A stretch of 20,000 nucleotides of DNA from Euglena gracilis (Eukaryota). The position numbers were made by a program, and so were the translations under genes. Of the stretch, positions 58-19,292 are shown piece after piece. Position 1 is the first letter of the stretch, and the number at the start of each line of letters is the position of its first letter. The notes beneath the pieces are model-generated. The model had not been told where the DNA came from. It did no database searches and was given only the letters and a program-made list of their open reading frames with translations. The stretch covers positions 5,853,389 to 5,873,388 of the forward strand of contig CP154954.1 in NCBI GenBank assembly GCA_039621445.1, written 5' to 3'.

Positions 58-61
58 ATAC
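58..61 (+). other. Left target-site duplication ATAC
   Basis: ctgATAC|tgtgtg; identical to 1735-1738. Confidence 0.9.
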
Positions 62-306
62 TGTGTGCGGCGCCAGGTTTAAAATTTAAAAACCCAAAAT
101 TGAATTAGGAGGCGCCTATCCTAATTACAAAATCTCTATTTTTGCAGCTGCAACTGTCCTGAACTCTTTGACTCAAGGAAGGCCTGAACGCCAGATGAAG
201 ATTTCAAGTCTTGGTTTGTGCTATGCTGAAGGAAAGTGAGTGCTGCTGGAAAGGAAAAGTTTTCAAGTTTGACCCCCAGTGGGTACAAGGAGAAACTCAG
301 AAAACA
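62..306 (+). repeat. 5' LTR of element M (245 bp)
   Basis: TG...CA ends. Differs from 1491-1734 by 6 substitutions and 2 small indels (counted by eye). Confidence 0.93.
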
Positions 307-1064
307 CAAAGAGTTCAATTGTTGCTCAAGGCCTGGAGGCCAAAAGTCAGCCAGTTTGGCCAGAAGAAATGGACATTTCAGAAAGTGTCAAGTCAGGGAT
401 TGTCAATGATGAAAAAATCTGGGAAAATCAATGCTGCAGAAAACTTGGCTGGAAATCTGAGCTGTATGCAGTAAAATTTCAGTATGTTGTTGAAATCATT
501 GACAGATTGTAATTGAAGACCCCCAACATTGATGCATTCAGTTTGGAAGAAAGCAAGATATTCAAATGCTGGTGGGGACCTGGGTCACAATTTGTGGAAG
601 ATTCCTTCACAGTGAAGTGGACACATTCCATTGTTGGATTGTTGTGGTCAAGTCCCCCCTTCAGCCTCATTGCAAATGTCATCCGCAAGCTGAAGAAGGA
701 TCATGGTCATGCGGTGTTGGTTGTCCCAAAGTGGGTTACTGCCCCCTGGTGGGAAGATCTTCAAGACATTGTTGTCAGAATGCTGGAGTATCCTTGTGCC
801 ACGCCGTTGTTTGAGTTGGTTGGGGCAGGGTTCACAGTCCCCCCCACAAAATGGCCAGTACAAGTGGCATTTGTCTGTGGAAGGATAAGTCAATGTTTCA
901 AATTGGCAAAAGTTCTCAATCCAATTTCAAGTTCAGCAAAAAGGAGAATGAGGAGGCAAAAGATGAAAAGAGGGTCCTCCCCACAAGTGCACCTTAGGCT
1001 CCAGGTCGGCACAGGGGACAGCCCAAATTTCAGTGATTCAAGTGGTGAAGTCTCTTTGCAATGA
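279..1064 (+). pseudogene. Dam-like (phage/DIRS-type amino-) DNA methyltransferase ORF with one in-frame TAA at 510-512
   Basis: ORFs 279-512 and 513-1064 share a frame. Motifs P-IDAF, DSF--KW, LWSSPPFSLIANVIRKL and AVLVVPKWVTAPWWEDL follow the DIRS/phage Dam pattern (IDLFAS...DAF...W...NPPF-LI--VL-K...ILV-P-W----WW--L). Basic tail KRRMRRQKMKR. True start codon uncertain. Confidence 0.8.
307..317 (+). promoter_or_regulatory. Self-priming primer-binding site of element M (Tf1/sushi type)
   Basis: CAAAGAGTTCA directly after the 5' LTR is the exact reverse complement of TGAACTCTTTG at 160-170 in the LTR. No TGG-initiated tRNA PBS is present. Confidence 0.8.
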
Positions 1065-1481: not shown

Positions 1482-1490
1482 AGAGAGGGG
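1482..1490 (+). promoter_or_regulatory. Polypurine tract of element M
   Basis: AGAGAGGGG immediately 5' of the 3' LTR TG. Confidence 0.85.
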
Positions 1491-1734: not shown

Positions 1735-1738
1735 ATAC
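1735..1738 (+). other. Right target-site duplication ATAC
   Basis: gaaaaca|ATACacccgg; identical to 58-61. Confidence 0.9.
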
Positions 1739-5691: not shown

Positions 5692-5965
5692 TCAGAAAGT
5701 GTTTATGTTATTGCGCTTGTTCCACGGCTTCCAATCCTGCTGGATATATCCAACAAAACTGGATGCTGGCTCCCAAGTGTCCTCCTCTGGCCCATACCCT
5801 TTCCAGCGAACTTTCCAGTAGTGCACACCCCTGTCGACCTTGTGGTCTATTATCCTATCGAACACAAAGTCGTCCGTTTCAGGTAATCTGGAACGGGGCT
5901 TGAAATACAGGCAGGGGATAGCTTTTCCGTCTGGGGGGCTTAGGTACGGTTTGAAGTCGTCCATA
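5692..5965 (-). pseudogene. pol: C-terminal chromodomain of integrase
   Basis: [10 protein letters not shown]...[22 protein letters not shown], a canonical chromo motif with aromatic-cage residues. Stop at 5692. Confidence 0.95.
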
Positions 5966-5969
5966 TGTG

Positions 5970-6650
5970 TTGAAGTTTTGTAAAAACGATTTCCGTTTGT
6001 TGGAATGAATTTCTGTGATACGTGATTGGACTGCAGAGCGGAGTGATTCCACTTCTGCAAACCACGTTTCACAGCTGACGCTACTTCGGGCGGGTCTCTC
6101 CGACGGGATATCCCCTATGGCCGGAGGGTCTCGTCCGAAAACAATTTTGTACGGCGAGTGTGGTAATACCAACCCTGGCAAGGTATTGATGTAAAATAAA
6201 CACCAATGAAGAACGGATAACCAATTCTTACCCGAGTCGGCCAGTGAAAGGCGAAGCATATTGACAACGGATTTCACGGCTGCCTCGGCTCTACCATTGC
6301 CTTTCGGGCGGTATATAATGGAAAAATGCTGCTAAATGCCGAGTAAACCGCACAAAGTGGTGAAAAACCGCGAAGAGATCAAGTGATCTTGATCACTCAC
6401 AATTTCGTTCGGTAAACCCATTAAGCAGATACATTTCTCCAAAAATATGGATGCCAGAATTTGGGCCGTCAACCCTGCTTTCCGGCATGGAATGGCTACA
6501 ATGTACCCACTCAGCCGACAGACGACAACAAAAATTGTAAATTTTGTCATATTATCCTTTGCAAGGTTCAAGTTCGAGAAAGTCCATGCAGAGGGACGTA
6601 AAAGTGTCTGGTGGTACGGGGAAAAAGTCCATCGTACCAGGGGGGGTACC
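5970..6650 (-). pseudogene. pol: Integrase catalytic core (DDE), frameshifted
   Basis: SLCMDF, CRLSGYIVAIPC, GLPNEIVSDQD, NGRAEAAVKSV, SPYKIVFGRDP. Confidence 0.93.
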
Positions 6651-7691
6651 TCAGCGCGGTTTAACAGCCTGGCAAAATTGGCACCGTTGGGAAATTCGCA
6701 AACAGCGCGAATATAAATCTTTTGCACTCAGGGTTGTGCCATATCTGCGACCCACTAGTGAAAGAAGTTTGGGGGCCCCAGGGTGACCATGGTTGTGATA
6801 CCTCAAAATCACATCATCAACCAGGTCTTGGGGTATACAATATTTATAACCAGAAACATTCCGGAAAATAAGCCGCAATGGTGATAGAGAGTAATTCTCT
6901 ATGGATTCACCATTACGAAGTCTATTCACAATGGTACTATATATAGGGTCACGCGAATAGTCCCATTCGCGGAAAAATAGGGGGGTAGGAGTTTCCGTAC
7001 GCGTAATGCGACGGGGTGCGGCAGTGCGTCCACGCCGGCGCCTTCCACGCAATGGTGAAATGGCGATGCTGCGATATACCCGGGAAACGGGTAGTGAACC
7101 GAGCATGTTGTCCGCAGCGTCGGATCGACGTGCGAACTGGTCAGCCTCATGGCTGCCATAAAAAGTCGCATCACCCTCATCCGGGTTCCCAGGATAATCC
7201 CAGGGGGCTCGGCTGAGAGGATCCGCAACTTTTTGTGTATGACCTGGGGTATAGATAACCACCAGGTTAAACTGGCTCAAGAACTCATGCCATCGGCATC
7301 TTCTGCCAACTGATGACATGGCCTTGTTTAGGTCCTCGGTATACCAGTGTTGAAGGCTCTCATGATCCCTCAACACGAGTATCTGGACAAAGCTGCTGGC
7401 TATCCAGCTGCGGAATGTCTGGAGAATAAGCACAATGGTATATGTCTCCTTTTCGCGAATGCTCCATTTAACCTGTCCTTTCCCGTTGTCGCCCTGTAGC
7501 TTCCTGCTGAAGAAAGCCACAGGTCGGAGTTCATTCGCCGCATTATGCAGGCTAAGAACCCCGCCAACAGCGTAATCGCTGCTGTCGACTTCCAGGACAT
7601 ATGGTTTATATGGATCCGCGATATCGAGAACCACGTTCTCGAGCAGCAAGTCCTTGATTTTATTGAAGGCCTCGCGCATTTGGTCATCCAA
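6651..7691 (-). pseudogene. pol: RNase H and integrase HHCC zinc-binding domain
   Basis: VDSSDYAVGGVL, PVAFFSRKL, EKE, DHESL, VADPLSR; then YHNHGHPG...CQFCQ. Confidence 0.95.
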
Positions 7692-7735
7692 AATGACTTT
7701 TGCGTTATCGGGTGTCCTATTTTTGAGTTGTCGGG

Positions 7736-8640
7736 TTAGTGGTAACTGCGATTTTTTGCGAAATCTTTCATGTAAATCGCGTAATATTGGGCTAATCCCA
7801 AAAATCCCTTTAAATGCGTTAAGGTCTTAATGACCTCAGGAGTCCATTTCTTAATGGCCTCCATCTTACTGGGTGCCGCTTTACGCTGCCCGTTGCTCAG
7901 GATATGCCCGCAAAACTTAATAAATTTGCAAAACAGGTGCATTTTGGAACCCTTCACAAAAAGCGCATGCTTTTTGAACGCAGATAATACCACCCACACA
8001 TCGCGATAGTGCGGTTCGAGGATAGCCTCGCCCGATTTCGCGGATGGCGGTTGGGTTCCCACCAGTACATCATCGATGTACACCAGAGCAAACGGTAAAT
8101 CGCGCAAAACCCACTGGATCATGCGTTGAAACATGGCTGGACCATTCCTTACACCCATGGGGAGTACCGTCCATTGGTACACACCCTTGGATGTCACGAA
8201 TGCCGTGTACGGTTGCGAATCAGGATGCAAACGCATCTGATGGAAACCGTCTTCCAGATCAAAGATTGAGCACAACCGGTTATCCGATTGTCTGGTGATC
8301 AAATCTTTGATCAGCGGTAACGGGAAGGGGTCATCCTTCGTTTGGGAGTTCAGGTACCGGTAATCCAGCACTAGTCTCTACTTCTTTTGACCAGACTGGT
8401 CAGCGGGTTTGGGCACCACAAAAACCTGTGATGTCCATTCGCTCTTGGAAGGGATAATCCACTTCCGCTGGATGGGTTTCTCAATCATCTCGTTGAGAGC
8501 TTGTTCGCGTTCACCCGAACAACGGAAGAATTTACGGTGCATGGGTTTAGCGCCATCCTTGAGCTCGATTTTGCAAACACCGAACGGGCCGCGAATCGCG
8601 GGGTCGATGTCGCTGGCGTATACTGGGTTATCCAGTACAC
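7736..8640 (-). pseudogene. pol: Reverse transcriptase (Ty3/Gypsy)
   Basis: SEWTSQVFVVPK...K*RLVLDYRYLN (TAG at 8378-8380), FDLEDGFHQMRL, LPMGVRNGPAMFQR, YIDD (8069-8080), FCGH, LKGFLGLAQYY. Frameshift near 7745. Confidence 0.97.
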
Positions 8641-8784
8641 CATGAAATTCGCGAGTAATTCGCGAACAATAGTCAGCAGACTTTGTTGGTCCGCACTCTC
8701 AATGACCGCAGAAATCTGCGTTGAGGGTGTGGCATCCCCCTTGGTACCAAGGTATCTTGGCACACGCACATCGGATATTCCGAA

Positions 8785-9400
8785 TGCGTCAAAGAAACAA
8801 ACGCCAAAAATTATTTCTTTAACCGGTGGTAATAATATACTGGACGTCCTCAATCCCGTTGCGCAAGGTAACTTTATATCGCCCGCTACTACCTAACCTC
8901 TCCAAAATTTCGCATGGGCCGAGCCAAAGAGGATCTAGCTTGGAGGATTGCATGCGGGTGCGGTTATTCCGTACCCACACGTGGTCACCTGGACTATACA
9001 CAGGCACAAAAATCCTCGAATAGTGGTACATCAGCGGGTAAATCCCACCAGTGGAAACACACATGGGATAGTTGGTGAAACCAATCCGCATTCGGATTGA
9101 CGGGTATGAGGAGAGCTCCTCGCGCTTCATCGCGGAGGATTTTCTCCACCACATCCGGGAAAAAGTTCGGGAGAGGGTGCATCCAGAGCACCGTATCACC
9201 CCAAAATTTCAGAAATGCGTTGGAATGTCGCGACCAATATCGTGACAAGCGCGCATGCGCTTTTGATGAAAACACATCAATTTCTAATGACAAATCGAAG
9301 GAATCAGCCACAACCGCGATTTTGGAGAACGATCCCTCCAAAATTCGGTATTGACCAAAATTTAATGCGTTCCATACGCGCATCGCGTATGTGTCGACCT
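8785..9400 (-). pseudogene. Dam-like methyltransferase domain inside pol, between protease and RT; split by the 168-bp insert
   Basis: IDVFSS---ARLSRYW...NAF-KFW...LWMHPLPNFFPDVVEKILRD...ALLIPVNPNADWFHQL...PLFEDF [insert] ILLPPVKEIIFGVCFFDA. Colinear motif by motif with the element M protein. The catalytic motif is degenerate (HPLP). Confidence 0.75.
8841..9008 (-). other. Displaced integrase C-terminal GPY/F segment (168 bp)
   Basis: Encodes VPVYSPGDHVWVRNNRTRMQSSKLDPLWLGPCEILERLGSSGRYKVTLRNGIEDV. Homologous to element B ~15370-15525 and absent from A's integrase at ~5966-5969. Confidence 0.92.
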
Positions 9401-9731
9401 GGTTCGCGGGGTGAAGAGCAGTAACGCAATTCAGGGATCCGCAAACATAAGTCAAGGGTGTTTTATCCACTCTCCCTAGGGGCATTCCTCAATGTTGATG
9501 GGTTGGATGGGTGTATACCCAGTCCATATCATGCGAGATGGAGGTGGGGGAGGTGTGTGACACGGATTTCGCTGTCCCAAACAACAAGGCAATACCTCGT
9601 TGTTGGAGCACTTGATGTACGGTCGCGCATTGCGAACCGCAACCAAGTGTATGGTTGCGCGAAATCGGGATTATTGTTGGTGTTTGGACTAGGCATCCAC
9701 AATCGAAATCTGGCTGGGCGGAAATTCTCCC

Positions 9732-10640
9732 TCAGTGCACACATTGGAAGGGAGTGTCGGAGTAGTGGTCCTGGTCGCGCACGTTGGTCTGGTGGGGGTG
9801 TGTGTAAAAGTCGGGATGCGCTGTTGTAGCTGCTGGGGGGTGTACAGATGTATCTGAAAGCGATACATCTGGTGGAAAACGGGGTATTGGTGCAGCTGGG
9901 CGACTACTCGACACCGTACGTACTTCAGGCCTTTGGGCTTTCGTCTTGTAACCCAGTGGAACGAGGGGGGTACCGCTACTCGCTTGCCCTGCCTCATGGG
10001 GAACGGAAGTTGGTGTGTCAATGGGCAGGGGGTGAACTTTCTCGGTACACCCGGTGTGGAAAACGTTGGTTGGTGTGGATGGTAACGGGGTAATATTTTT
10101 TGAAATCGGTGTGGAAATATTGGTGGTCGTCGCGGTTGACGCCACGGGTGCTGAAGGTTTGGGGGGCAATGAAGAGAATGGTGATGTGCGCCAACCGTGG
10201 GAGTGGCAATCCACTACCAGCCGGTGCTGACGTAAAAAGGGGTATCCAAGAATTACGCCAGAACCATGGATTCCGGATTCGTATCCCCAGGTATCCGGAA
10301 AATTTTGCGTTTGGGGGGGGTGTGAGTGGTGCTTGGGGATGAGGGGTAGGACAATGTCCAAAAAGCATCCCAAGTCACCGCCGCACATGGGGGTGTTGTC
10401 AGCCGTCGTAATTTTGATCAGCTTCTTGGCTTTCACCAAGAGGGGGGTTGGTATCAACCCGAACCGAAAAAGTAGTGCAATGCGACAACCAGTATCAATG
10501 AGAATTTTGACTTTTGCACTACAATTTTGGAATTTGATTTCCGCTTGGACCAAAAGTTCAATGGGGGGTAAGCAAAGTGAAGGGTCTGGCGAAAATACGT
10601 TTTCTTCCAGCTTTCCCATGATCCCTTTCCTACTTTGCAC
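9732..10640 (-). pseudogene. pol: Retropepsin aspartic protease followed by a P/T/S-rich linker
   Basis: ILIDTGC (DTG at 10488-10496), flap ITTADNT and ILGYPFL motif. Confidence 0.9.
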
Positions 10641-10743
10641 AACATTCCGAGCGGAAAGCTGGAGTGGGGGGTGGGGGACCCGAAAATTTTCCGGGTACCG
10701 ACCAGAAAGGCAGATGGGCAGGGGGGGCGGGGTTGATCAGGTC

Positions 10744-12198
10744 CTACCTCCATCTGTTCATCAGCCCAGAGGTCCGTTCCCTCGGACCTCGGGCTCCCCT
10801 ACTCCAGGTCCGAACCGGCCGAATAGCCGCTATGGGCCTTTTAGAGGTGTAGAAGGATTTCAACGTGCGCACCGCCATGCGGGCATCGTCGAAATCGGTA
10901 TCCGTGGTCTCATCCCCCTCCCTGCCCGAAGCCGGGGTGTCATCCTCCAAACAAGATATCTTGAAACCGACTTTATGGCGGTTGGAGGAGTGACCCTTGT
11001 CACCGCGATTCATACCGCGATGACGTTGGCCAGGGCGTGGAGAACGAGAACGCAGACATTTGGATGAGTGGTGATCACTCGATCCACAAAGCGAACACCG
11101 AGATTTGTGTCGCGATTCTGGGTAACGGGGGGATCGGTTTCCCGATTTCCCGTCAACCGTCGCGGTGACCGGATATCCCGTCGACGATGACCGGTGTATC
11201 GAGGTTTTCCCGACGAGGATCGCGAAGAAGATGATCCGCTTCGCAAAACACGATCGCGATGTCTCGCGATGAGAATCACACTTCTTGGACAGGGCACCGG
11301 GTGACCTACCCCGAGGGGTACCGTGTTTCCGCTCATCGCGGAACGGGATCCGGGGGCTAATACCACCGGAACGGGGACCCGATGACCGTGAATTGCCCGA
11401 TTGGCGTGAAAACGTGGAGGAACCCGAACCCCGTGATGAGGTCGAGCCTCGTGGACTCTGAATACGCTTACACACTTCAGGATTAGGACATTCCCGAGAC
11501 ATATGTCCCGCTTTGTTGCACAAAAAGCACACTTTATCCGTGGCTTGGTCCGAAGAACGCGGATATCGCGTTTTCGATCCCGTGTTTGGTGAGGTGGGTG
11601 AAACCGGTGATTTTTGCAATGCGTTCACCGAACCAGCCGGTAATCCAGCGGTTGGGTGTGCGTTATACGCGGATTGCATCTGACCAAGAAGCTGTGATAG
11701 CTTCAACTGCTTGGAAACGTAGTTCCAGCGTTGGTCAAGAGTCATTGGATGACTCGCCAACCCATCACGGTGGATATCCTTGATGAGGCTAGGCGTGAAA
11801 TACATGAGAACAGCATCAAACTGTTCGCGCACTTGCTTTTCACTGAGTTCATCCACTTCGGCGGCAAGTCCTAACCATTTGGCATACCAAAGGTCAATGG
11901 ACTTCCACGTGCGATCGGGTGGGGCGCATTGCCGCCACTTGGTCTCTAGGGTAATCCTAGCGACCAAACTTGAACTGGTGGAAGCGTATTGCTCCACCAG
12001 GTCATCAAGGGAAACACGGTAGCGAATCACGAGTTGTCGCGCGCGTTCCTTCTCATCCCTAGGGAGGCAATCGATTAATTCCATCTTGATCACCTCCGGG
12101 TTTGTGTCCTGGGTTGGCCCTTTTAATGCCCAGTAGTACTGCCAGTCCCGGAAAAACTGTCTCCATGCGGTTGGATCACCGTCGCATTGGGGTTTCAC
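10744..12198 (-). pseudogene. gag: Gag capsid-like domain plus two CX2CX4HX4C zinc knuckles in an R/S-rich region
   Basis: Capsid-like start (DGDPTAWRQFFRDW). Knuckles CFLCNKAGHMSREC (11488-11529) and CSLCGSSDHHSSKC (11056-11097). Confidence 0.88.
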
Positions 12199-14771
12199 CT
12201 TATTCGCGATTGCGATGGTGCCCTTGAAGTCTTTCTGAGAAACCCAGTGACCGTCGGTGGTATTCCGTGGTTTTGGGCCTGGGTACGCTCGAGCACCAAG
12301 CGTATCCTTTCCGGAATCTTGGCGGAATTCGCGATTTCTGGTGAAGGTGAATCCTGGTACCGGAAATCCGGTCGCAAACCCTGTTGGGCACCCGTAATAC
12401 GGGGACTCTCCGGTGTGGGGGTATGTCGCCCATGCAACATGTGACCCACTCCCGGTGTACGGGTTTGGCTCATTCCATGCACAAGCATGGAATGATGGAT
12501 TTCTTGGCGGAGACTTGGCGGAATCGCCGTGTTTTCCGAAAATTCGGTTCCCGTAATGGGAAATTCATCCGAAAACTGGGTTTGGGTTGTGGGCAAGGCC
12601 AATGGTGGCACAATTCGCGGACTCGCGGATTGTGACACTCGGGACACGGGTTGTGGTGGTGCATGTGCACCTAGAGTCGGGTTATGGAAACGCGACTCTG
12701 CAACATTTGGCGCGTCTTCGGCATTGCATACTGCCGAATTGCGGTGTGAAACCCGCTGTTGGTTGGACACATTATCCAAACACACAGACAAGTCATGCAC
12801 AGTTTGCTCCAAGTGCTCAACGAGTTGGAGTTGACCGCAAATAAGATCAACTCGATCCTCCAAAGCGCGAATACGCTTGCGGTAACGGGAAAAGTCATCC
12901 GAGTGCGGAAACCTTTCGGAAATTTCGGTAACATCTTGGACAAGGTTCCCGTGAGAATTATCCAATAATTGGAGTTGTCCCATTAATGCTTTTACAGCAT
13001 TTGAGAGAATCTGCAGTTACCTTGGTTGGTGTGGTGGTGGGTGGAACCGGTGCAGCGTTATCCGACAACGCGGTTGTGGTACCCACGGGAAAATTTGCGG
13101 ATTGCAGCTTATCCAAAAACGCGGAAATTCGCTCATCCAACCTGGTAATTTCACTTTGCGTGGATCGGGCATTCCGATTCACCGATTCCTCAAGCCGTAA
13201 TAGGCTGTTGCAGAAATCTTGCAATGTTTCCTGATTGTCAGTGAGCATTTTGTCATAAAATGCCTTGAAATCGGGGTTCTCGGTAATCCAGGAATTGGAA
13301 CATGCAGGTAGAGACTGCATTTCTGTTTTTTTAGCAGACACCGATGCATACCGGGTCTGGAGTTCCCCAATAGCAGTTTGAATACCTCTAATGTCCGGAA
13401 CTCGGTGGGAAAGTGCGGAATAGCTTTGTTGCAAACCCGCAATGGCCGAGTTAATCCCGCCAATGTCGGATTGCAACTGCAACTGCAGGGAATCCTGCCG
13501 TTGTGCTACTTCCGCGACTTTCGCGCTCAGATTGGATAATCCAACCTGATTTGCGTCACAATAGCAGGTTTTCTGATCCAAGCGGGACAGTCGCTCCTCC
13601 AACTGCCGCACATACGTGTGGGGAGCAAAATTCTCGTTGGCTTGTGACTGGAATTGCCGAAATTTTTCTGTTTCATCGCACAATTGCATAATGCGGTGTT
13701 GCGATTCATGGAAAGTTGCGGACAATGTGGTGAAATGGTCCATAGACACAAATCCACCACTGTTTGATGTTGCAGACAAGGAATGTCGTGCATGCAACTG
13801 TTGTTGCAAATGCACGAGATTGTTGCAAATGAACAGGACTCCATTTTTCCCGATAACTGTTGTAGTGAGTCATGCAAGTGCAGAAACTTGGAATCATTCC
13901 GCGTTTCCGCTTCATGCATGCATTCACTAATTAGCCGGAAGTTTTGCGGGAGTTGTTGGCATATTTTGTCAAAGGTTTCCCGAAAGCTTGCAAGGTCAAT
14001 ACCCGCACTTTCGAAATTCCTCTGGCAATATTTGCCAACTTCTTGCAAATAATTCCAGCAGTATTCCAGCTTGGTGAAGACATGTTTTTGGTTGTCCTCA
14101 TCAAACTGGAGCACTTTGTTGAGTGCGGTTGCACAATCTGCAACGCATTGTTGCACATGGTTGAACTGCCTCACAAGGGGGTGATCCCCTGGAAGCTGAG
14201 CAACGATATCCTGCACATCCTCAGCAGTGAGGAGCTCACCAGTGCCCTTCCCATAGCCATCCATGTGTTGGGACGTACCGGAGAATTCCGGTACCACTAG
14301 GCGAGTCTCCGGTTGCCAAGGTAGTGCGGGATAGCACCCAAGATCGGGTGGTGGTGGCAAAGCTCTGTAAGGGCTTGCCGGTGGAAGAACGGGTGGTGGT
14401 TGAAAGAAACACGGGGTTTCTAGCTCACCATCACCAGAGAAGCCCGGTGGCTGAATCACCACGGGTCTCTCCGGTGTGTGCAGCTGCACCATTGCCGCAG
14501 ACAGAGGCGAATACCCCCGTTGTGACAAGGTGAGTGCGGAAGAGGCCGCATTAGCCTCTGAAGCCAGTGATGTGGAGGGCTCATTGCCGACCACTGTCAA
14601 TGATGACAAATGTTGCAATCTTGACAATTGAACCAATTGTGCCTCATCGGCGTGGGAACTGGAAGCACTTTCACATAAAAGCTTCCAATCCCCATTTTCC
14701 TGGTCAATGTCTTGCAATGATGCCTGTAATAAGGCATAGTTGAATTGATAGTTGGGGCCTGTGCTTTGCAT
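12195..14771 (-). pseudogene. Long helical/coiled-coil N-terminal extension of gag (or separate upstream ORF), frameshifted
   Basis: ATG at 14771 (MQSTGPNY). Overlapping ORFs 13527-14855, 12958-13815 and 12195-12983 chain by frameshifts. Q/E/L-rich heptad-like stretches (VRQLEERLSRLDQK, IRALEDRVDLICGQL). Confidence 0.65.
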
Positions 14772-15038: not shown

Positions 15039-15051
15039 TCCTCTGCTACCA
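15039..15051 (-). promoter_or_regulatory. Primer-binding site complementary to the 3' end of initiator tRNA-Met
   Basis: Minus strand reads ttaca-cg-TGGTAGCAGAGGA(ggtcacgatcc). The reverse complement of animal-type tRNA-iMet is TGGTAGCAGAGGATGGTTTCGATCC. Confidence 0.9.
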
Positions 15052-15053
15052 CG

Positions 15054-15367
15054 TGTAAGTCTGATTCCCAATTCCCTTTTCCCAATTCCCAAAAGCCTTC
15101 GCTTTCGCCTTGGCGCACCTACTTGGGAACTGAAAATCATAGTAACAGAAAATCCCTTTTTCCCACTTCCCAAGAAGCAAAGCACAGAGCAATGCAGGGA
15201 GGACGGACTGGATATCCAAGTCCGGTCCGGAGAAAAGGAAGGACAAAGGGAAAAACAGAATACCACCTGTGGAGAGAGAAGGGGCACCCATTAGGAGATC
15301 CTAATAGGATCTGCTTCCATCCTAACTTCCTCAACGGAAGGGGACAGAAGCATATGCCTGGTACACA
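15054..15367 (-). repeat. 5' LTR of element A (~312-314 bp; start at 15367 or 15365)
   Basis: Begins TG(TG)TACC where element B's integrase homology stops (NGVE|). Ends CTTACA two nt before the PBS. The partner LTR is not in the window. Confidence 0.8.
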
Positions 15368-17243
15368 CCTCGACACCGTTGGGTAAAGCGACTTTATAGC
15401 GCCGACTTGTACCCAACCGATCAAGGATCTCACATGGTCCCATCCAGAGGGGGTCCAACTTCGTGGATTGCATGCGAGTTCTACCGTTCCGAACCCACAC
15501 GCGGTCACCTGGGTTGTATACCGGTGATTTGTAATCTTGTAAGAATTGTTTTTTTGTTTTTGTAAGTGTATAGCGACTACGTGCTTTTGCACATCCGTGC
15601 GCAATGATTCTACTTCAGAGAACAATGTTTCGCAGCTCACGCTAGAACGAGCGGGTCGTTCTGACTCGATGTCGCCCATGGCTGGGGGGTCTCGTCCGAA
15701 GACGATTTTGTACGGTGAGTATTGTAATATCAGACGCGGTAAAGTGTTGATATAAACACCAGGGTAGTACTTGTAGCCAGGCATTGTACGATTCGGCCAG
15801 TGAAAGTCGTAGCATGTTGACTACAGCTTTCACTGCCGCTTCAGCGCGACCATTTCCTTTTGGACGATAAATAATAGAAAAATGCTGCTCAGTTCCTAGT
15901 AAATCACAAAGAATTGTAAAAAATCGAGCAGTAATCAAATGGTCTTGATCACTCACGATATCATTCGGTAAACCCAGGAGGCAAATGCATCTTTCTAGAA
16001 ACGTTTGTGCCAAAACTTGTGCTGTCAACCATGCTTTCTGGCATGGAATGGCTACAATGTACCCACTCAGCCGACAGACGACAACAAGAACGTAATCGCA
16101 AATTTTGTCATCTGTTCCTTTGCAAGGTTGAAGTTCCAGAAAATCCATGCAGAGGGAAGTAAAAATGTCATTTGGTACGGGGAAGAAATCCAACGTACCA
16201 GGGGGGGGTACCTCTGCCCGGTTTCACAGCTTGACAAATTTGGCACCGTTGCGAATTTTGTAAACAGCGCTTGTACAATTTTTTTTCGGTCAGGGTTGTA
16301 CAGTATCTGCGACCCACCAAAGAAAGAAGTTTGGGGGCCCCAGGGTGACCTTGGTTGTGATAACATAAAAGTTCGTCATCAACCAAGTCACAGGGTATGC
16401 AGTATTTATATCCAGTATCATTTCGGAAAATCAAACGTAAAGGTGATAAGGTATAATTCTCAACCAATTCACCATTACGTAATCTTTGTACGACATTATT
16501 GTATAAATCATCCTTGGAATAATCCCATTCAAGAAAAAAGAGACGGGTTGGATATTCTGATCGCGCAACTCGGCGGGGGCCCGGCATTATGCAGCGTTTT
16601 CGTTTTCCCCGTACGGGGGCTATCGGCATCCGCCGCCAAGTCCGCGAAACAGGAAAGTTGTCAAGCAGGTTGTCAGCGGCGTCTGCGCGCCTTGCGTATT
16701 CGTCGGCTTCGCGACTTCCGTGGAACGTGGCATCACCCTTGTCAGGGTTACCAGGGTAATGTCAGAGTGCACGTAAAAGTGGGTCTGCGACTTAATGAGT
16801 ATGACCTGGTGTGTAAACTACCACCAGGTTGAATTGACTCAAAAATCCGTGCCAACGGCATCTTCGGCCAACTGAGGACATGGCTTTGTTCAAGTCTTCG
16901 TTGTACCAGTGTTGGAGAGACTCATGGTCTGTCAACACTAGTATTTGTACGAGTGAACTGGCGACCCTACTTCGGAATTTTTGTAGGATAAGGACAATGG
17001 CGTACGTCTCCTTTTCTCGTATGCTCCATTTGTACCTTGTAGCTTTCTGCTGAAGAAAGCTACAGGGCGCAGTTCATTGGACGAGTTATGTTGACTCAAC
17101 ACACCGCCGACGGCATAGTCGCTCCTGTCGACCTCCAGTACGTATGGTTTGTATGGGTCGGCAATGTCAAGTACAACGTTGTCCAACATCAGTTGTTTAA
17201 CTGTCGTTAGCGATTCTGGCATTGTATCATCCCATTGTATCGT
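15368..17243 (-). mobile_element. pol: Fragment of a related Gypsy (element B): RNase H, integrase HHCC, core and GPY/F; degenerate
   Basis: LDIADPYKPYVLEVDRSDYAVGGVL, YHNQGHPG...CQICQ, GLPNDIVSDQD, KLDPLWMGPCEIL. Colinear with A 5970-7700 but clearly diverged. Cut at both ends by LTR-like termini. Confidence 0.93.
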
Positions 17244-19135: not shown

Positions 19136-19292
19136 TCACTGCCCCCCCCCCAATCACACGGGGCAATGGGGGTCAAATGGTCAAATGACATGGCAAACTC
19201 AAAAATACTGAAAATTCAAATCCAATTTTGTCAGCCAAATCGATTTTTCGCTGCCCCCCTCCAGTCACATGGGGCCATGGGGGTCAATCTGG
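19136..19292 (+). repeat. Imperfect ~45-bp direct repeat, 2 copies (19136-19180, 19247-19292)
   Basis: ttcactgccccccccccaatcacacggggcaatgggggtcaaatgg vs ttcgctgccccccctccagtcacatggggccatgggggtcaatctgg. Confidence 0.7.

Follow-up and report, generated by a model that had tools for sequence, protein, structure and literature searches.

The window analysed here is a stretch of 20,000 nucleotides from Euglena gracilis (contig CP154954.1, positions 5,853,389 to 5,873,388, forward strand). It begins in a repeat-rich region that holds element M, a long terminal repeat (LTR) retrotransposon of 1673 bp at 62-1734. Eleven nucleotides directly behind the 5' LTR of M are exactly complementary to a stretch inside that same LTR, and the pairing is confirmed as a real feature and not a product of chance. 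Judged from the sequence, self-priming in the manner of the Tf1 retrotransposon, with the element's own RNA as the primer, is the best reading of how minus-strand synthesis is initiated in M, and we regard it as probable.

The putative primer-binding site (PBS), CAAAGAGTTCA, occupies 307-317 on the forward strand and starts from the first base after the LTR. It is the exact reverse complement, in 11 of 11 positions at offset 0, of the putative self-primer TGAACTCTTTG at 160-170 (+), whose 3' end is G170. An earlier note on this DNA had claimed both this complement and its geometry, and both were confirmed: G170 pairs with C307, and A306 and C305 would be the first templated bases. Because the pairing of G170 with C307 makes A306 and C305 the first bases to be copied, the primer junction would define the LTR end. 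A perfect complement of at least 11 nt from the first post-LTR base was reached by 7 of 20000 dinucleotide-preserving shuffles of the LTR, and by 27 of 20000 when offsets 0-5 were allowed. Among the 1173 start positions of the M internal region, a single one, namely 307, has an 11-nt complement in the LTR. When 307-324 was matched against the whole LTR by RNAduplex, the best partner was 151-170, with -15.9 to -17.0 kcal/mol against -7.6 kcal/mol for the next unrelated site. A published working criterion, used to predict self-primers in plants, calls for 10 bp or more that are complementary to the 5' LTR and begin 0-5 bp behind it (PMC6317226); M presents 11 bp at offset 0. RNAduplex also continues the helix upstream of 160 by six extra pairs, namely U157-A318, G156-U319, and 151-154 (CAAC) with 321-324 (GUUG). 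This possible upstream extension (151-157, +) is statistically weak.

The ends of the 5' LTR were set in four ways, by the LTR pair, the TG..CA termini, the flanking ATAC and contigs of the empty site. The 5' LTR (62-306, +, 245 nt, TG...CA) and the 3' LTR (1491-1734, +, 244 nt) form a direct repeat with 95.9% identity over 245 nt (blastn), and the 3' LTR holds a second copy of the 11-mer at 1591-1601. A polypurine tract (PPT), AGAGAGGGG, read from the sequence at 1482-1490 (+), adjoins the 3' LTR. The four letters ATAC at 58-61 (+) recur at 1735-1738 (+) as the left and right copies of a target-site duplication (TSD). Contigs of four public sequencing runs were aligned to 1-1800 of the window at a likeness of at least 80%, the metatranscriptome X20 (0.05 of words) being left aside; one of the four runs, X19, is only guessed to be RNA. 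Three contigs, two from run X1 and one from run X13, join 57 to 1735 with four letters fitting both sides. These empty-site contigs carry a single ATAC, which marks M as a true insertion that duplicated 4 bp of its target. It sits in another repeat (1-61 and 1735-1800), whose depth in the DNA runs is several times that of M and whose uninterrupted form is present as contigs in two runs. M itself is multi-copy, with 1333, 111 and 59 contigs aligned at the same likeness in the DNA runs of organisms A, B and C, respectively.

No gag or pol was found in the 1184-nt internal region of M by a scan of open reading frames (ORFs) and domains, and M must accordingly borrow reverse transcriptase (RT), RNase H and integrase (IN). 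Two TG..CA LTRs, a PPT, a TSD and the lack of gag-pol are the features that define an integrase-type non-autonomous LTR retrotransposon, and all of them are found in M. It is a small, high-copy, integrase-type LTR retrotransposon without gag or pol. The sole reading frame of its internal region lies at 369-1064 (+) and encodes, by translation, a Dam-like (N6-adenine methyltransferase-like) protein of 231 codons with a basic C-terminal tail; in the window a stop at 510-512 breaks the frame, and its NPPF motif lacks the N. Two parts of M, 100-147 and 1137-1440, are prone to indels among copies, and a G+C-rich self-complementary stretch followed by C and A homopolymers is also present there. Some copies carry deletions of 64 nt (1217->1282) and 120 nt (1311->1432).

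The earlier note had further stated that M has no tRNA-type PBS, and within M's own sequence this holds. No TGG occurs within 27 nt of the LTR end, and the first one downstream of the 5' LTR stands at 334-336, 27 nt away; published practice looks for the TGG of a tRNA PBS 0-5 nt after the LTR (PMC6317226), and none is found there. The statement covers M's own sequence and not the tRNA set of the host. ARAGORN detected no tRNA gene in the window, and a search of 1-1800 against Rfam gave seven matches at E<=1, all far under the gathering scores and none near the LTR or the PBS.

In folding predictions for 35 transcript contexts, the helix had a mean pair probability of 0.7 or more in 29. In addition, a U5 stem-loop is predicted at 259-305 (+; minimum free energy -11.8 kcal/mol), ending one base before the PBS. 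It was equalled in stability by 4 of 500 mononucleotide shuffles, and its version in the 3' LTR is weaker, at -8.1 kcal/mol. This modelled hairpin may be the counterpart of a U5-IR-like stem-loop that Tf1 needs; such a stem-loop was reportedly found to be required by Lin and Levin in 1998.

The following course of events is proposed for M. The R-region stretch 160-170 of its RNA would fold back on 307-317, and the RNase H of a helper would cut after G170, between 170 and 171. The RNA primer freed from M would end ...UGAACUCUUUG and would become joined to the strong-stop complementary DNA (cDNA). Reverse transcriptase would extend the G170 end through A306 and C305, then along U5 and R, and the cDNA would be transferred to R of the 3' LTR, where the 11-mer occurs again (1591-1601). 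Finally, the RNA primer would be copied during plus-strand strong-stop synthesis, so that the PBS would be rewritten from the primer in every cycle, which would explain why the 11-nt match is perfect. The model on which this course is patterned, and which the earlier note had named, is documented: Tf1 primes with the first 11 nucleotides of its own mRNA; these pair with the PBS, and the RNase H cut falls between bases 11 and 12 (PMC7175516). Of the self-priming proposed for M in that note, three points proved real and unlikely by chance: the pairing, where it lies, and the absence of a PBS of the tRNA type. The pairing is also thermodynamically plausible. The cut and the priming, like the strand transfers and the helper, are what we infer.

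The M transcript may start at about 160, which would make the primer terminal as in the strict Tf1 geometry, or upstream, at about 147 or earlier, which would leave the primer embedded. A start upstream of 160 may be considered because the pairing continues past 160 and because a contig of run X19 extends from 147. Priming would still work with an embedded primer, since the cut after G170 itself creates the 3' end, and the 5' tail of such a primer would add six pairs with 318-324. The contig in question is a single deep one covering 147-1266, with a depth of 69.9 and nine unaligned letters before 147, and the depth is 0-7 at 62-131 and 1267-1500. It could also be obtained from reads of the 3' LTR. 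A transcript boundary at about 138-147 was considered from the X19 depth and rejected, as contigs hide RNA ends, the contig end is loose, only one study is concerned and site 138 is polymorphic. A joint 1530->147, present in X1 and X13, represents an LTR variant without about 100-146, whose likeness to the window resumes at 147; it is suggestive of a U3/R-like boundary and is not a test of one. TATA-like stretches at 79-94 and 121-143 were given no weight, since they are compatible with any start from about 110 to 170, and a sigma-70 promoter scan was set aside as irrelevant for a eukaryote.

Other copies were compared with the window at the two 11-mers. The X19 contig 147-1266 differs from the window at 29 places and covers both 11-mers, neither of which is changed. 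All five differences of the X13 contig 89-217 lie outside 160-170, and all ten of the X14 contig 287-638 lie outside 307-317; in another X14 contig, 130-312, eight of the ten differences are listed, and 160-170 is unverified there. Among the bridging contigs checked, the covered 11-mer or 11-mers are unchanged in four, the one from X19 covering both. The X19 contig also has a variant at 318 that would add a pair adjoining the helix. A predicted protein from another copy, P0051, reads ...HSENTKSSIVAQG... across the 307-317 stretch, which is compatible with the same letters. Relatives were sought further afield. A pattern of the LTR ends that excluded the PBS had no match in prokaryote-genome contigs and none in viral contigs, and its sole metagenome match (L001), an unrelated AT-rich contig, was rejected as a chance match. 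Locus searches guided by the Dam-like frame gave 24 pattern matches in prokaryote-genome contigs (alignment A3), none of which was confirmed, and six loci in viral contigs, with 28-38% identity.

A number of these results weigh against Tf1-like self-priming in M or limit the support for it. The fold of 160-340, which the earlier note had suggested as a check, does contain the helix in its minimum free energy structure, but the overall stability of this fold does not exceed that of shuffled sequences (z = 0.61; 145 of 200 shuffles fold equally well or better). In 6 of the 35 transcript contexts the helix has a low probability, such as 0.11 in 160-400. As to a start at 160, all 24 sequencing runs available consist of assembled contigs, which cannot show RNA ends, and the contig of X19, a run only guessed to be RNA, begins at 147, 13 nt upstream of 160. 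If this contig is RNA from the 5' LTR, the strict geometry of the first 11 nt fails, because the contig covers the sequence from 147. The 11-mers show no variation among the copies seen and hence no covariation, and with only about 0.5 variant expected in 22 nt (40 of the 99 variant places listed, over 1800 nt) their conservation is without power. No independent diverged member of the M family was obtained from the searches of metagenome, prokaryote-genome and viral contigs. Lastly, the search for a tRNA-type primer was confined to M's own sequence and the tRNA genes of the window, and the primer may yet be an unusual tRNA fragment.

This last point belongs to a broader alternative, in which the helix is a structural part of the leader that closes R-U5 for packaging, dimerisation or presentation of the PBS, and the primer is an unconventional tRNA fragment or another small RNA bound at or just after 307. 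The predicted stability of the helix would suit such a role, and retroviral and Tf1 leaders do hold U5-leader stems, in the case of Tf1 reportedly according to the title of the 1998 paper by Lin and Levin. Half-tRNA primers without a TGG-type PBS are described in 2% of plant elements (PMC6317226). We nevertheless hold this alternative to be unlikely, though worth keeping in mind, since the complement begins at the exact first post-LTR base, where the 3' end of a primer must lie, whereas a purely structural helix has no reason to begin at the LTR end. Nor is an alternative PBS visible in its place, the first TGG being 27 nt away.

Chance complementarity in a dead, non-mobile copy, with the true priming signal of M elsewhere or lost, is very doubtful. 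This copy has decayed, as its LTR divergence of about 4% and the stop in its only reading frame attest, and several elements and k-mer lengths may have been inspected before the 11-mer was noted. The shuffles, however, reach 11 nt in only 7 (offset 0) and 27 (offsets 0-5) of 20000 cases, the 11-mers are identical in the copies checked from three further runs, with X19 covering both, and the abundance of the family in three organisms, together with its empty sites, indicates that it has been mobile. A derivation of M from a DIRS-like tyrosine-recombinase element, whose complement would serve circle formation in the manner of the internal complementary region of DIRS, is hardly credible. It is brought to mind by the Dam-like domain that is M's only reading frame, such domains having first been known from DIRS elements (10.64898/2026.05.21.726589). 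M, however, is bounded by direct LTRs that are plain and unsplit, with TG..CA ends; its PPT adjoins the 3' LTR, its 4-bp duplication is matched by empty sites, and no tyrosine recombinase was found in the ORFs scanned. Relatives of its Dam-like domain, moreover, also lie between protease and RT in polyproteins, and Dam domains are reported in Ty3/gypsy-like LTR elements (10.64898/2026.05.21.726589).

The Dam-like frame of M is open in other copies. The predicted protein P0051 is 96% identical to it and uninterrupted, and at 510-512, the codon that breaks the frame here, nearly all aligned contigs have other letters than the window. An exhaustive HMMER search with a cut-off of E<=1e-3 returned 1094 relatives, and many are stand-alone proteins with a length of about 200-260 amino acids (aa). 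The closest diverged relatives, 46-48% identical (e.g. P0052 and P0053), are likewise stand-alone, with 202-242 aa, and start with M (methionine). In an alignment of 15 relatives the motifs D.F, WG..S, W.NPP and P.W and two Cys are invariant, and a basic tail is present besides. A Dam-family profile (alignment A2) matches the frame at E 6e-61 and the Pfam Dam model PF05869 matches its relatives; M's own reading frame gave no Pfam match at E<=0.01, and a sequence-profile search of the PDB gave no match. A homologue search limited to longer proteins found nothing. Longer relatives (P0103, P0081, P0171, P0106 and P0199) display the order protease, Dam, RT, and two longer relatives have weak C5-cytosine methylase matches beside the Dam domain, a pair that recalls the dual-methylase 'EpiLTRs' described in a recent preprint (10.64898/2026.05.21.726589).

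Element A of the earlier note, on the minus strand, is a chromovirus, or a nest of chromoviruses. Its LTR, at about 15054-15365 (-), is followed by CG and then by a perfect PBS of the tRNA-iMet type at 15040-15051 (-), found by motif match. No second copy of this LTR was found in the window. A domain scan located a gag CCHC zinc knuckle, RT, RNase H, integrase and a C-terminal chromodomain within 5695-12564 (-), and a second pol copy, 69-86% identical in aligned blocks, is seen at 15587-17232. Between the ORF with the gag zinc knuckle and RT lies a distant Dam-like fragment (8997-9488, -; about 9014-9281), which matches the Dam-family profile at E 6e-16 and is 25% identical to the M frame. Immediately behind it comes a Tf2-1-like integrase SH3 piece (8854-8989, -) recognised by domain match. 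The region of the fragment represents a DAM-LTR element with an internal deletion or else a nested insertion. A further pair of direct repeats of 34 nt, 88% alike and 111 nt apart, occurs at 19143-19287 (+) and reads CCCCCCCCCAATCACACGGGG....

No candidate helper for M was seen. Sequence likeness places the cargo of M and the neighbouring elements, although they are only distant from one another, in one wide circle of DAM-carrying Ty3/gypsy elements, which does not name the helper. By analogy, a helper from a self-priming lineage, which the earlier note had supposed in place of element A, is plausible, because the cutting of an RNA duplex would be a special activity of the Tf1 enzyme; a paper on that enzyme reportedly says so in its title. 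As a high-copy non-autonomous element with a clean signature, M lends itself to a search for the helper, whose RNase H has to cleave an RNA duplex, to the study of covariation over many copies, and to the question of whether a parasite must share the primer of its helper.

The existence of M suggests that DAM-only genes can be mobile LTR units. It is tempting to go further and to see in M a class of compact mobile DAM-only LTR elements, self-priming and with a stand-alone Dam-like protein of about 200-260 aa as sole cargo, which reach high copy number by parasitising DAM-carrying chromoviruses and whose primer is unlike the tRNA-iMet type of the neighbour and lies at least a dozen bases away from the 5' end of the RNA. 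Taken as a whole this is a speculative proposal, and we think it rather unlikely to hold. If it were true, many of the orphan DAM-only genes known from protists and algae would have to be seen as active hitchhikers and not as remnants, and the choice of primer would not be tied to the helper.

Self-priming has been known since the 1990s and has been predicted in fungi, vertebrates and plants. To our knowledge, its experimental proof in the literature examined is confined to fission-yeast elements, and elsewhere it is inferred from the same signature. The mechanism being already known and widely predicted, the modest novelty of M is that of a non-autonomous DAM-only carrier. Tf1 and Tf2 of Schizosaccharomyces pombe, and Tj1 of S. 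japonicus, which has been interpreted as self-primed like Tf1 (PMC4600332), resemble M in lacking a tRNA PBS and in having an 11-nt complement of their own LTR at the post-LTR PBS. M shares with them the length of 11 nt and the position directly behind the LTR, and its predicted U5 hairpin beside the PBS may be a further likeness. The three fission-yeast elements are self-primed Ty3/gypsy elements, from which M differs in having no gag or pol, and for its six pairs upstream of 160 no Tf1 counterpart is established. The relatives of M point to a protist or alga, and not a fungus, as its probable host.

Among predicted self-primers, the same signature has been recognised in the Tcn1 clade and in TAR copia elements, amounting to 12% of the plant elements surveyed (PMC6317226). 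Further examples are the Houba/Osr-1 copia elements of plants and Maggy, Skippy, Cft-1, Boty and sushi, the Tcn1 clade being found in fungi and mosses (PMC6317226, PMC6934838); in the consulted part of the latter source self-priming appears only as a known alternative. All these have just the sequence signature in common with M. They are autonomous and were placed by RT/IN phylogeny, whereas M, without pol, is not placeable in that way. TRIM and LARD elements are like M in their short LTRs, PBS, PPT, TSD, lack of gag-pol and high copy number. M differs from them in that it measures 1673 bp, contains a conserved Dam-like frame of 231 codons in place of a non-coding core, and has a self-complementary PBS and not one of the tRNA type.

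The cargo of M has its nearest parallel in the DAM-LTR retrotransposons, reported in a bioRxiv preprint of May 2026 as Ty3/gypsy-like LTR elements with DAM domains, some of them also with chromodomains, in green algae, ichthyosporeans, a red alga and Euglena (10.64898/2026.05.21.726589). DAM-only sequences, 46.1% in that work, are treated there as likely remnants, and the terms 'non-autonomous', 'standalone' and 'primer binding' are absent from its main text. M and the DAM-LTR retrotransposons have in common a Dam-like domain inside an LTR element. A Dam domain in or next to an RT-bearing pol of the same element, by which that group is also recognised, is missing from M, where the Dam-like frame stands alone between the LTRs, and a frame that travels in this way bears on the origin of both the DAM-LTR elements and the orphan DAM genes.

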